A DNA stretch of 52,665 nt from Candidatus Curtissbacteria bacterium (GCA_038326365.1 JBBQJY010000003.1:1-52665), one strand, 5' to 3'; shown: positions 37,708-42,160, counted from the stretch's first letter. The notes: generated by a model not told the origin, from the letters alone. Made by a program: numbers and translations.

Positions 37708-38211
37708 TTAAGCCGCAGTTTTTTCGACAACTGGAGTCGTTGTCGTATTGGAAAGCTCGCTTGTTACTGATGAAGTGTCAACGGTTGTACCTGGAGCTGG
37801 AATTTTAGGATCTAGCGGTGCAGCTTCCATCCTAACTGGTCCTAAGCCGGGCATTGGGTTGCCAATATGTGCAGCTTGTGCAGACGGTCCAGGGCTAGTT
37901 CGGATTTCTTGATTTAAGCTTTTTATTGTATCTTGAGCAATCGCGTCTAAGGAAGGGCTGGCTTCGTGAACAACACCATCTCTGGCCTGCAATCCCTCGG
38001 ACGCCCCTACCCCAATTGAAGCAGAATCGGCGCTTGCCCTAGCACTGTCCGACAACGCCCCTGCTTCCCAAGCGGTCTTTGGACTTGTAGTTGTATTAGG
38101 AGTTTCAGAACGGCGGTTGCGAGCAAATCTTCCCAGAAACCCCCCCAAAAAGCTTTTTTTCTCTGGAGCCATTGGTTCTTGACTTGGGATCTCTGTTGTA
38201 GGTTCACTCAT
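37708..38211 (-). CDS. Low-complexity, probably disordered hypothetical protein
   Basis: 167 aa from ATG 38211; Ala/Ser/Thr/Pro-rich; fills the gap between rpsI and tRNA-Pro. Confidence 0.65.
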   Translation of the reverse strand: MSEPTTEIPSQEPMAPEKKSFLGGFLGRFARNRRSETPNTTTSPKTAWEAGALSDSARASADSASIGVGASEGLQARDGVVHEASPSLDAIAQDTIKSLNQEIRTSPGPSAQAAHIGNPMPGLGPVRMEAAPLDPKIPAPGTTVDTSSVTSELSNTTTTPVVEKTAA

Positions 38212-38318
38212 AACTAACAAACATTATCATATATTTTATCGCTTTGTAAAGTTTCGAAAATCAGCCAGCTTGTGTTTAAAAACGCTGAGGTTCTCACCTT
38301 AATTTTAAGTATACAATG

Positions 38319-38460: not shown

Positions 38461-39540
38461 ATGACTAACTCCGACGCGAAAAAGCAGGCTATCGCGACTG
38501 CAATCTCTCAAATAGAAAAAGCATACGGAAAAGGCTCTATTATGAAAATGGGTGAGTCTGTTGGTAAATTTGAAATTGATGTTATTCCAACGGGAATTGT
38601 ACCCGTTGATCTCGCACTTGGTGTGGGAGGTTTACCTAGGGGCCGTATCGTTGAAATTTATGGACCAGAAGCGTCCGGAAAAACAACCCTGACACTATCA
38701 ACAATCGCCCAGGCTCAAAAAAATGGTGGAAATGTAGCACTGATTGACGCAGAACACGCGCTTGACCCTGTGTGGGCGGAAAAAGTGGGAGTTAATCTCG
38801 ACGACCTTTTGATTTCTCAACCGGACACCGGAGAGCAAGCGCTAGAAATTACTGAAACCTTAATTCGTTCCGGGGCAATTGACGTTATAGTTATCGACTC
38901 CGTGGCCGCGCTAGTTCCACGTGCCGAAATCGAAGGGGAAATGGGTGACTCCATGATTGGGGTCCAAGCCCGCTTAATGTCGCAGGCATTAAGAAAACTA
39001 ACAGGCGTTATTTCAAAATCCAAAACCATTGCGATTTTCACAAATCAGCTTCGGGAAAAAATTGGTGTTATGTTTGGAAGCCCAGAAACAACCCCTGGTG
39101 GGCGAGCACTTAAATTTTATGCGTCAGTCCGTTTGGACATTAGGAAAATAGACAATATCAAAGAAGGCGATCGTGTAATTGGATCACGTCACAGAGTTAA
39201 AGTTGTTAAAAACAAAGTTGCTCCGCCGTTTCGTCTTGCCGAATTTGACATCATGGGCGAAGAAGGGATCAGCAAAGAAGGCGGTCTAATTGATGTTGCC
39301 ATGGAACTTGGTCTTGTCACTAAAAGCGGCGCTTTTTACCGCTGGGGCGCAAAAATGATCGGACAAGGTAGAGAAAGTGCCAAAGGATATTTTGCCGAGC
39401 ATAAAAAAGATTATCAGGCTCTGGAAAAAGATATATGGTCAAAAGTTAAAAAAGGAGCTTCTACCAAACCTGCAGTCACAACTAATCACGAGTCGGAAAG
39501 CGACGAAATTCTAGAAGAAATTATTCCTGCTGCTCAGTAA
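38461..39540 (+). CDS. recA: Recombinase A
   Basis: [44 protein letters not shown]. Confidence 0.99.
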
Positions 39541-39543
39541 TTC

Positions 39544-40221
39544 GTGGCCCAGGTTAGTGCCATTGAATCCCAAAAATCCAACATAAGGCGATCAGACAAA
39601 ATCGAAAAAAGATTTAACATTTTTATCGGCGAAAAATTCGTCTTTGCGGTTGGGGAAGAAAACCTCCTTAAATTCAAGCTTAAGGTTGGAAGTTTGATAG
39701 ACGATCAAATACTTGCCGAAATTTTAAAAAAAGAAGATGAAAAAAAGCTCACAGATCAGGCGATTAACTTTCTTTCATTTAGGCCCAGAAGTCAAAAAGA
39801 AACGGAAGACTATCTAATCAAAAAAATTTCACAAAAAGAGAAATTAAAATATCATCAGGCAAAAGAAGCACCGCAAATTCCAATTATTATCGCAAAGCTT
39901 GCCAAATACGGATATTTAGACGATTTGAACTTTGCCAAATGGTGGGTGGAAAGCCGAAATAGAGCGCGCCAAAAAGGGAAAAGACTAATAAGCATGGAGC
40001 TGAAGTACAAAGGCATCGATGAGGAGATAATCTCAAGCGTATTGGAAGACTCGGAAGGAGAGTTGGAACTGGCCCTTAAGGTACTCGAGAAGAAAAAAAA
40101 CAAGCTAGCAAAACTTTCTGCAATTGAAGCTAAGCAGAAAACCTACTATTACTTAGGGACTCGTGGATTCGACACCACTATAATAAAGGAAGCATTTGCA
40201 ATTTTTTTTAAAAAGAGCTAA
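39544..40221 (+). CDS. recX: Regulatory protein RecX
   Basis: Directly after recA; AINFLSFRPRSQKE, YLDDLNFA, ELKYKGI, YLGTRGF. Confidence 0.93.
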   Translation: MAQVSAIESQKSNIRRSDKIEKRFNIFIGEKFVFAVGEENLLKFKLKVGSLIDDQILAEILKKEDEKKLTDQAINFLSFRPRSQKETEDYLIKKISQKEKLKYHQAKEAPQIPIIIAKLAKYGYLDDLNFAKWWVESRNRARQKGKRLISMELKYKGIDEEIISSVLEDSEGELELALKVLEKKKNKLAKLSAIEAKQKTYYYLGTRGFDTTIIKEAFAIFFKKS

Positions 40222-40352
40222 AATTTTTAAACAAGAAAGCAGTAAATAAGAAGTTATATAGGCTTTATGAAAAATAAAACTATAAACAGCAATATTTTTT
40301 TGTCTCACAATTCCCGCTAACCACGGCTTATTTTTACTGTTTCTAAAATAAA

Positions 40353-41831
40353 ATGAGTTATTACGACGATCAAAAATCGCCTCAAAAAAGAGGCCAAAAA
40401 GTAGTTGTTTCTGTAGGCGTGCCACGCCAAGATTTAAACAGCCCTCGAGACGCGAGAGAAATAATTCAAGACGCCAGAGACGAGGCATTCCGCATAAAAA
40501 AAGCTGCGGAAGAAGAGTCAAGAAAAGTTCGTCAGGAATCCATAGAAATTGAAAAAAGAATAGCACAAAAGGAAGAAGGACTTGACTTAAAAATTTCTCA
40601 AATATCTAAACTCGAAAAACAAACCGAAAGCCAAAAAGATGCTTACGAAAAACTGGAAAAAGAATTATCTAAAGCCAGAAATGACCTTATTGAAAAATTA
40701 TCAAAAACGGCATCTCTGACTCGGGATGAGGCAAAAAAGTTAATTCTTACAAATTTAGAACAAGAGCTTCAAGGAGAAATTGCAAAAAGAATTAAGGAAG
40801 CCGAAGAAAAAATTAAGGCCGAGAGCACTCAAAAAGCCCGAGAAATAATTGTCAATTCGATGATTGCTGGCGCCACAGACTGGGTAGCAGAATACACAGT
40901 CTCGACAGTTAAATTAGAGTCTGAAGAAATGAAAGGCAGAATTATCGGCAAAGAAGGCCGAAATATTCGAGCATTCGAATTGGCAACAGGCATCGATGTG
41001 GAGTTAGATAGTGACATTGAAGGTGAAGTCAGGCTCTCCTCTTTTGATCCAATCAGAAGAGAGGTTGCCAGAGTTGCTCTTGAGTGGCTAGTCAAAGACG
41101 CCAGAATTCAACCGACAAGAATCGAACAACTAGTAGAGCAAGCTCGTGCTCAAGTGGCTTCGGATATGTCTGAAGCTGGTAGAAAAGCGGCCACTGAGCT
41201 GGGATTATTCAATATACCCGAAGAGGCACTTGATACTCTCGGTCGACTAAAATTTCGTTATTCATACGGTCAAAATCAACTAATCGCCGCAGTTGAAACC
41301 GGCAGAATAGCTAAGAAAATTGCAGAAGAAGTCGGCGCTAATTATTTAATTTGCGCACAAGGTGGACTTTTTCACGATATTGGGAAAACTGAAATGGAAA
41401 AAGAGGGAACTCATGTTCAACTTGGAGTTCAACTTGCCAAAAAATGGAATTTTCCTCCTGAGGTTGTTAATTGTATAGCTCAGCACCATGAAGACGAACC
41501 GTTTTCCGCAATGGAGTCAATCGTTGTTCATGTGGCTGATGCTGTTTCTGGAGCTCGACCGGGTGCCAGGCACGAGGCAGTCGAAGACTATATTAAAAGA
41601 CTCAAAGATATAGAAAATGTGGCAACTTCATTTTCCGGTGTGGAAAAAGCCTTTGCAATTCAAGCAGGCCGAGAAGTAAGAGTGATTGTGCAGCCGGAAG
41701 TTGTGGATGATGACGGAGTTGTAACTCTTGCGCACAACATTAGGCAAAAGCTGGAAAGCGATTTAACTTATCCAGGCCAAATCACAGTTACGGTCATTCG
41801 CGAAACTCGAGCCATCGATATTGCCAAATAA
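40353..41831 (+). CDS. rny: Ribonuclease Y (no N-terminal TM anchor; first HD-domain His replaced)
   Basis: Coiled-coil, KH motif KGRIIGKEGRNIR, HD motif FHDIGK, SGARPGAR, AIQAGREVRV, YPGQITVTVIRE. Confidence 0.95.
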   Translation: MSYYDDQKSPQKRGQKVVVSVGVPRQDLNSPRDAREIIQDARDEAFRIKKAAEEESRKVRQESIEIEKRIAQKEEGLDLKISQISKLEKQTESQKDAYEKLEKELSKARNDLIEKLSKTASLTRDEAKKLILTNLEQELQGEIAKRIKEAEEKIKAESTQKAREIIVNSMIAGATDWVAEYTVSTVKLESEEMKGRIIGKEGRNIRAFELATGIDVELDSDIEGEVRLSSFDPIRREVARVALEWLVKDARIQPTRIEQLVEQARAQVASDMSEAGRKAATELGLFNIPEEALDTLGRLKFRYSYGQNQLIAAVETGRIAKKIAEEVGANYLICAQGGLFHDIGKTEMEKEGTHVQLGVQLAKKWNFPPEVVNCIAQHHEDEPFSAMESIVVHVADAVSGARPGARHEAVEDYIKRLKDIENVATSFSGVEKAFAIQAGREVRVIVQPEVVDDDGVVTLAHNIRQKLESDLTYPGQITVTVIRETRAIDIAK

Positions 41832-41834
41832 TAA

Positions 41835-41863
41835 TTGACTGCTCAAAGCTATTTATATATAAT
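41835..41863 (+). promoter_or_regulatory. Sigma70-type promoter for HU gene
   Basis: TTGACT (41835-41840), 17 nt, TATAAT (41858-41863). Confidence 0.8.
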
Positions 41864-41887: not shown

Positions 41888-42160
41888 ATGACCAAAAAAG
41901 AATTAGTTAATAGAGTTTCCAAGAAAGTGGGACTCACCAAAAAAACCGCAGAACATGCTGTTAACGCAGTCTTTGCAAACATTCGCGAATCCATGATCAA
42001 AGGTGACAAAGTTGTAATTACCGGCTTCGGAACTTTTAAGGTAAGAAAAAGGGCCACCAGAACAGGACGCAATCCCCAAACAGGCAACTCACTAAAAATC
42101 ATTGGACACAAACTTCCAGGCTTTACCGCAGGCAAAACCCTTAAACGTTTAATAAAATAA
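41888..42160 (+). CDS. hup: DNA-binding protein HU
   Basis: MTKKELV, VVITGFGTFKVRKRATRTGRNPQTG, PGFTAGKTLK. Confidence 0.97.
   Translation: MTKKELVNRVSKKVGLTKKTAEHAVNAVFANIRESMIKGDKVVITGFGTFKVRKRATRTGRNPQTGNSLKIIGHKLPGFTAGKTLKRLIK

Follow-up and report, generated by a model that had tools for sequence, protein, structure and literature searches.

RNase Y without a transmembrane helix or the first HD-domain histidine in Candidatus Curtissbacteria: a possibly rebuilt metal site

The rny gene of Candidatus Curtissbacteria bacterium (Microgenomatia, Patescibacteria; GCA_038326365.1), located at 40353..41831 (+ strand) of a 52,665-nucleotide stretch of DNA (JBBQJY010000003.1:1-52665; hereafter the window, in whose coordinates all nucleotide positions are given), encodes a 492-residue RNase Y that departs from the characterised enzymes in two features: it has no transmembrane (TM) anchor, and alanine replaces the histidine that is the first metal ligand of the HD domain. 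The replacement is common to the order to which the genome belongs, and is accompanied there by another histidine beside the distal aspartate of the same domain. On balance, we lean towards an active, probably cytoplasmic RNase Y in which metal site 1 has been rebuilt.

The open reading frame (ORF) encodes an orthologous, true RNase Y. Its product matches the ribonuclease Y equivalog model of NCBIfam (TIGR03319) with 516.2 bits, above the cut-off of 454.35, in agreement with an earlier reading of the window from its sequence alone (the sequence-only reading); the gene is single-copy, its product is nested among the RNase Y sequences of the class, and its neighbourhood is conserved. Near-identical proteins in public records are titled plain 'ribonuclease Y', and this annotation is correct for the gene.

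Replacement of the first HD-domain histidine

In an ungapped alignment of Bacillus subtilis RNase Y and 30 relatives, the B. subtilis motif GQNVLKHSMEV corresponds to GQNQLIAAVET, with Ala312 (GCC, 41286-41288) under the first histidine; the reference used here is what we take to be the B. subtilis sequence. Ala312 again occupies the first-histidine position of GQNxxxH in a 260-sequence RNase Y alignment (150 representatives of 50%-identity clusters and 110 loci). The rest of the dinuclear HD pattern H...HD...H...HH...D is present: the HD doublet (H341-D342, CAC GAT, 41373-41378), invariant in all alignments; a middle histidine (H354, CAT, 41412-41414), which is a site-2-type ligand of the dinuclear motif (PMC8177086); the HH doublet (H378-H379, CAC CAT, 41484-41489), placed by the 260-sequence alignment; and the distal aspartate (D396, GAT, 41538-41540). 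The first histidine lies outside the Pfam HD match, since the latter begins only at residue 314 (profile position 6). Codons and alignments thus agree with the sequence-only reading, which had described a change of the first HD histidine to alanine with HD, HH and the distal aspartate retained.

The order of the source genome in GTDB comprises 34 species genomes in three families and 25 genera. An rny gene was found in 33 of them, the genome without one being 83% complete, and all 33 genes encode both Ala312 and a histidine at position 393. Independent metagenome assemblies also yielded 120 homologues with 70% identity or more, and Ala312 is present in every one. Outside the Ala-type clade, only two of about 220 RNase Y sequences lack the first histidine: a multiply degenerate homologue (P0267) and a gapped fragment (P0240). 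The Ala-type sequences are monophyletic in a maximum-likelihood tree (Shimodaira-Hasegawa-like approximate likelihood ratio test 100, stem length 0.27) and, because they form one clade, the substitution evidently had a single origin. No intermediate possessing both His312 and His393 was found near this clade in the tree. Alignment across the group, as the sequence-only reading had advocated, shows the histidine substitution to be fixed in the order (33/33) and a TM helix to be missing from most of the Microgenomatia sampled.

Coupled substitutions around metal site 1

The other histidine, His393 (CAT, 41529-41531), which the sequence-only reading had not noted, lies three residues before Asp396 in the motif VH[VIL]AD. 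Every one of the 40 Ala-type sequences aligned carries it, as do at least 116 of the 120 close homologues, a count that leaves out four whose residue 393 was not parsed. Outside the Ala-type clade, histidine occurs at this position in 5 of about 220 sequences; sister Microgenomatia lineages have tyrosine or tryptophan (VYIAD), and RNase Y at large is variable (Q, A, S, I, Y or W). Only two sequences, L057 (395-1840) and P0182, combine all seven canonical ligands with His393; both have a TM helix and are unrelated to the Ala-type clade, and their possession of both histidines indicates that the new one is compatible with the old site.

The catalytic half of the protein was screened for substitutions that are fixed in the Ala-type clade and rare elsewhere, and eight were found (residue of the sister lineages, position, residue of the Ala-type clade): Y177W, I271D, M/L309Q, H312A, E316T, I/V321K, Y/F365W and Y393H. 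Positions 309 (CAA, 41277-41279), 312 and 316 (ACC, 41298-41300) share one face of the helix that would carry the first histidine (modelled at residues 309-327), so that the remodelled face is encoded by 41277..41300, and positions 393 and 396 share one face of the distal-aspartate helix (modelled at residues 387-400). With position 312 itself excluded, three of the seven substitutions are within four residues of the two site-1 ligand positions, versus about 0.4 expected (hypergeometric P = 0.004).

Active-site conservation and ribonuclease inventory

Within the Ala-type clade, H341, D342, H354, H378, H379, D396 and the GARPGAR loop are invariant, as are 45 of the 108 HD positions, and the HD and KH domains are the best-conserved parts of the protein (mean pairwise identity 81% and 85%, respectively). 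The pattern of a pseudo-enzyme, in which several ligands are lost and constraint is relaxed, is not found here: one ligand is lost and the others are invariant. Several HD ligands have been lost at once in a few RNase Y-like proteins elsewhere, P0242, P0253 and P0267 (patterns HHEAANSN, HHAYHNHH and QYNHQYEV), which are candidates for true pseudo-enzymes or else alignment artefacts.

A single-sequence search of the PDB with the rny product gave no match, and a profile search found only relatives of the HD and KH domains, with no solved RNase Y catalytic domain. The closest solved match by both profile and fold is the HD domain of PgpH (4S1B, E = 1.6e-7 by profile; Foldseek probability 1.00 with a weak E-value of about 0.009, the query being the full-length model). 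The PgpH ligands are H514, H543, D544, H580, H604, H605 and D648 (PMC8177086); by analogy with this template, Ala312 would cost site 1 one of its four protein ligands without touching site 2.

The source genome (G000) encodes RNase III and PNPase, and no RNase J (TIGR00649), RNase E/G or RNase R was found in it. None of the 25 genomes of the source family (f1; G000-G024) has RNase J; the two sister families of the order (f2 and f3) have it, as do 13 of the 14 further families sampled across the class. Since f2 and f3 already carry Ala312 and His393, and these families and 13 of the 14 others keep RNase J, RNase J was lost after the change of histidine to alanine. With RNase J lost and no RNase E/G, RNase Y is the sole enzyme of the E/J/Y class that is left.

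N-terminus and membrane anchoring

The rny product starts MSYYDDQKSPQKRGQK, and its first 30 residues (40353..40442) are hydrophilic and modelled as disordered (predicted local distance difference test, pLDDT, 38-39). The N-terminal TM anchor that is typical of characterised RNase Y, though no requirement for scoring by the hidden Markov model, is absent: the TIGR03319 alignment enters the profile only at position 47, beyond the TM segment, and the highest 19-residue Kyte-Doolittle mean before the KH domain is 0.05, versus 1.7-2.4 in TM-bearing relatives. An in-frame TAA (40344-40346, + strand) is located two codons 5' of the start, and the AT-rich spacer of 131 nt between recX and rny (40222..40352) contains no + strand ORF and encodes no TM segment, so that, as the sequence-only reading had it, no upstream frame supplies a helix. 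The N-terminus is also not amphipathic (hydrophobic moment 0.25, mean hydrophobicity -0.57), and the cytoplasmic location proposed in that reading is plausible.

In Microgenomatia RNase Y the TM helix was lost early and widely, and its absence is not peculiar to this gene; only a minority of the sequences sampled (Woykebacteria-like, L027 and L065) have one. In most of the rest, the N-terminus is a short amphipathic head, for example MSFFGNLSSLF, MSFLQKLSSLFKGG or MLPKLLQKLF; head patterns in L030, L066-L109 and others are MSFFxNLSxLF, MSFLxKLxxLF and MLPxLLKKLF. The median hydrophobic moment (0.49) and mean hydrophobicity (0.26) of these heads are comparable to those of the MinD-type membrane-targeting helix, as we take its sequence to be, and by these values the head may be a peripheral membrane anchor that has replaced the TM helix. 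The heads of families f2 and f3 keep MAI[VL]GKIL, and those of f1 form a decay series from MAIINVF and MVSLGIF to MSYYDDQ and MFD (median moment 0.25, hydrophobicity -0.44).

Complete N-termini of f1 (L003-L026, L112-L118) also contain the motif [KR]V[VI][VI]S[VI]G about 16-40 residues from the start, in a few variant forms, and the motif is absent in f2, f3 and other Microgenomatia. In the present protein it is KVVVSVG (K16-G22, 40398..40418), modelled as disordered, and may serve to dock a partner as a strand.

Removal of the TM domain leaves B. subtilis RNase Y active in vitro but alters the fate of hundreds of transcripts; the authors rationalise membrane tethering by competition with RNase J (PMC11313650). 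Decay of the head in f1 coincides with loss of RNase J, which fits this idea. As a general rule, however, loss of the anchor following loss of RNase J is only a weak correlation, because families f5, f6 and f8 combine short non-amphipathic N-termini with an RNase J that is still present.

A putative rebuilt metal site and its alternatives

In one event at the base of the order, His312 was replaced by alanine, Tyr/Trp393 by histidine, Met/Leu309 by glutamine and Glu316 by threonine. We propose that His393, which sits a helical turn away from Asp396 on a helix apparently packed against the first-histidine helix, would take over the lost ligand or a second-shell role at site 1, aided by Gln309 and Thr316. 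Metals would still be bound and single-stranded RNA still cut, perhaps with a shifted metal preference. Having neither TM helix nor amphipathic head, the protein would be a cytoplasmic coiled-coil dimer and, being the one endonuclease of the E/J/Y class in family f1 that could initiate decay, would pass its fragments to PNPase. The parts of this proposal differ in strength: it is very probable that the enzyme is catalytically active, a truly cytoplasmic location is rather probable, and a role of His393 as a direct metal ligand is put forward with some reserve, as falling short of an even chance.

Several points weigh against this proposal. Because position 393 varies across RNase Y, it is not normally a ligand. 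Mutual information with average product correction, in which column 393 covaries best with columns 321, 313, 317 and 310 on a face of the first-histidine helix, points to contact between that helix and the distal-aspartate helix, but is suggestive only, since it is confounded by phylogeny and the effective sample is about 176 sequences. The pairing of Ala312 with His393, being one evolutionary event, has the statistical weight of a single co-occurrence. Replacement of a metal ligand abolishes the activity of the HD enzyme YfbR (PMC8177086). The cytoplasmic location is read only from the absence of hydrophobic or amphipathic segments, and the protein might be tethered to a partner through the conserved KVVVSVG motif. 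Finally, the literature search found no biochemical or transcript data for Patescibacteria RNase Y.

The main alternative, possible but unlikely, is an active enzyme in which His393 is not a ligand. Site 1 would then have one protein ligand fewer, the gap being filled by water or by the amide of Gln309, and would be loosened or shifted towards Mg2+, or else site 2 alone would work; His393, Gln309 and Thr316 would merely repack the cavity of His312 and Tyr393. This account shares with the proposed rebuilding all of the evidence for continued function, which fits it equally well, and draws on the variability of position 393 (no ligand elsewhere), on the fixation of Gln309 together with the other changes, on the use of Mg2+, which favours oxygen ligands, by RNase Y (PMC9775385), and on OxsA, in which a histidine ligand of the HD site is replaceable by water (PMC8177086). 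What speaks for a ligand instead is that His393 is invariant in more than 150 Ala-type sequences, a stronger conservation than expected of a packing residue at a variable position, and that the residue type gained is the residue type lost.

The sequence-only reading had preferred altered or reduced catalysis, with the protein possibly acting as an RNA-binding scaffold. A dead or crippled RNase Y, retained for binding RNA or as a scaffold through its KH domain and coiled coil, would account for the missing canonical ligand; ligand substitutions inactivate other HD enzymes (PMC8177086), conserved pseudo-enzymes exist, and the genome retains RNase III and PNPase. It is nevertheless improbable, for six of the seven ligands, the GARPGAR loop and much of the HD domain are invariant order-wide, a histidine was gained beside the site at the same time, and the degenerate homologues of RNase Y, in which several ligands are gone, do not resemble it. 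That the genome has no RNase J, E/G or R, and its family no RNase J, makes an inactive scaffold unlikely in another way: RNase J was lost after the change, and a dead RNase Y would leave no endonuclease to initiate decay of single-stranded RNA. An artefact, whether codon 312 was misread or misassembled or a wrong start call hides a TM segment, is a negligible prospect, because Ala312 is fixed order-wide and in independent assemblies (which excludes sequencing error or a private mutation), the same alanine and the same type of N-terminus recur in more than 150 of these, a change from histidine to alanine requires two base changes, the stop codon lies two codons 5' of the start, and MSYYDDQ...KVVVSVG is common to the near relatives L015 and L024.

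Domain architecture and gene neighbourhood

Pfam domains of the rny product are in the order RNase_Y_N (PF12072), KH_1 (PF00013) and HD (PF01966), with which the modelled secondary structure agrees. The N-terminal head is followed by a long helical coiled coil (residues 31-172, 40443..40868; PF12072 at residues 34-171), modelled as helices 31-120 and 124-172 with pLDDT of about 76-90, which is likely to be a dimerisation stalk. The KH domain (residues 183-250, 40899..41102; PF00013) has an intact GxxG loop (GKEGRN, 40947-40964), in which G199, G202, R203 and N204 are invariant. The HD domain (residues 300-408, 41250..41576), delimited by Pfam and the alignments, has the motif A...HD...H...HH...H..D and adopts the HD fold in the model (block-mean pLDDT 81-97 for residues 301-400). 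The C-terminal domain (residues 409-492, 41577..41828) is beta/alpha in the structure model, and its counterpart in B. subtilis RNase Y is reported as a probable dimerisation region (PMC9775385).

The source genome (966 kb in 64 contigs, rated 99.9% complete) contains one copy of rny (520.9 bits in a six-frame search with TIGR03319), and the second copy that the sequence-only reading had suggested looking for was not found in this search. Upstream of rny are recA (38461-39540) and recX (39544-40221), and downstream is hup, encoding HU (41888..42160), all on the + strand and identified by Pfam. The order recA-recX-rny noted in that reading is kept, together with hup, across Microgenomatia; recA and recX lie upstream of rny at 37 of 39 Ala-type loci and at most His-type loci. 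The one promoter-like site ahead of rny (40195-40224) is weak. A near-consensus sigma-70-type promoter (41835-41863; TTGACT, 17 nt, TATAAT, 11 of 12 matches) is located directly after the rny stop codon and 5' of hup, as hup's own strong site.

Between rpsI and recA, on the - strand (37708-38220), there is a 170-codon ORF whose predicted product is rich in proline, serine, threonine and alanine and has no Pfam match. Among the loci compared (L031-L110), many records of metagenome-assembled genomes clearly belong to Patescibacteria by rny phylogeny and flanking synteny, yet bear titles such as 'uncultured Gammaproteobacteria', 'Pseudomonadales', 'Nanoarchaeia archaeon' or 'Bathyarchaeia archaeon'; the discordant titles look like mislabelled public records.

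Comparison with other HD-domain enzymes

Like RNase Y of B. subtilis (Rny/YmdA), the Curtissbacteria enzyme has the order coiled coil, KH, HD and C-terminal domain, the HD, H, HH and D motifs, the GARPGAR loop, a gene next to recA and presumably the same endonucleolytic role. Unlike it, the Curtissbacteria enzyme has no TM helix, alanine for the histidine of GQNVLKH, the new His393, and changed residues at Q309 and T316; moreover, B. subtilis has RNases J1 and J2, and the Curtissbacteria genome has no RNase J. RNase Y of Woyke-, Gottesman-, Roizman-, Davies-, Woese- and Collierbacteria is 47-57% identical, is encoded in the same recA-recX-rny-hup order and mostly lacks a TM helix, but these proteins keep His312, Glu316 and Tyr/Trp393, many have an amphipathic head of the MSFFxNLSxLF type or a real TM helix (Woykebacteria), and nearly all of their genomes encode RNase J.

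The HD domain of PgpH, a cyclic di-AMP phosphodiesterase of Listeria (4S1B, 4S1C), shares the seven-ligand pattern H...HD...H...HH...D, but its first histidine is kept, its substrate is a cyclic dinucleotide, and it is attached to a seven-TM receptor module, where RNase Y has a coiled coil and KH domain. The second-best PDB profile match is the HD nuclease domain of Cas10/Csm1 (7uzw_F, 9g9a_A and 6xn3_A, E = 4e-6), which has in common with the RNase Y HD profile the motifs LLHDIGK and Y-I-A-D-x-I-x-S-G, the tyrosine of the latter corresponding to position 393. The HD motifs of Cas10 are described as permuted; its chains start a few residues before the HD doublet in the alignment, with no equivalent of the first-histidine helix preceding it. 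Cas10/Csm1 belongs to another protein family, with a DNA substrate and homology confined to the HD domain, and by analogy it would be a precedent for an HD nuclease site built without an upstream histidine.

Conclusions

In a literature search of incomplete coverage, no paper was found that deals with Patescibacteria RNase Y or with this substitution in an HD domain. Motif rules that demand H...HD...D would wrongly flag the rny product as inactive. RNase Y has no solved catalytic domain and its metal site has only been modelled; this natural variant under strong selection, in which a canonical ligand is gone and a histidine has been gained near the distal aspartate, lends itself to reciprocal substitution (A312H, H393Y and, in B. 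subtilis, the opposite pair) as a way to learn how the HD site of RNase Y is put together and at which metal site catalysis takes place. Microgenomatia also offer a graded series of RNase Y anchoring, from TM helix through amphipathic head to nothing, that bears on why RNase Y is tethered (PMC11313650). The finding is of moderate interest for research on RNA decay and on HD-domain metal sites.

In its boldest form, which we offer only tentatively, the proposal is that the whole order runs its only decay-initiating RNase on a rewired site, A...HD...H...HH...H..D, in which the first-histidine ligand has moved to the distal-aspartate helix, that the enzyme is free in the cytoplasm with the new KVVVSVG partner motif, and that the family then discarded RNase J. 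If true, this would be the first natural relocation of a ligand in an HD-domain nuclease.

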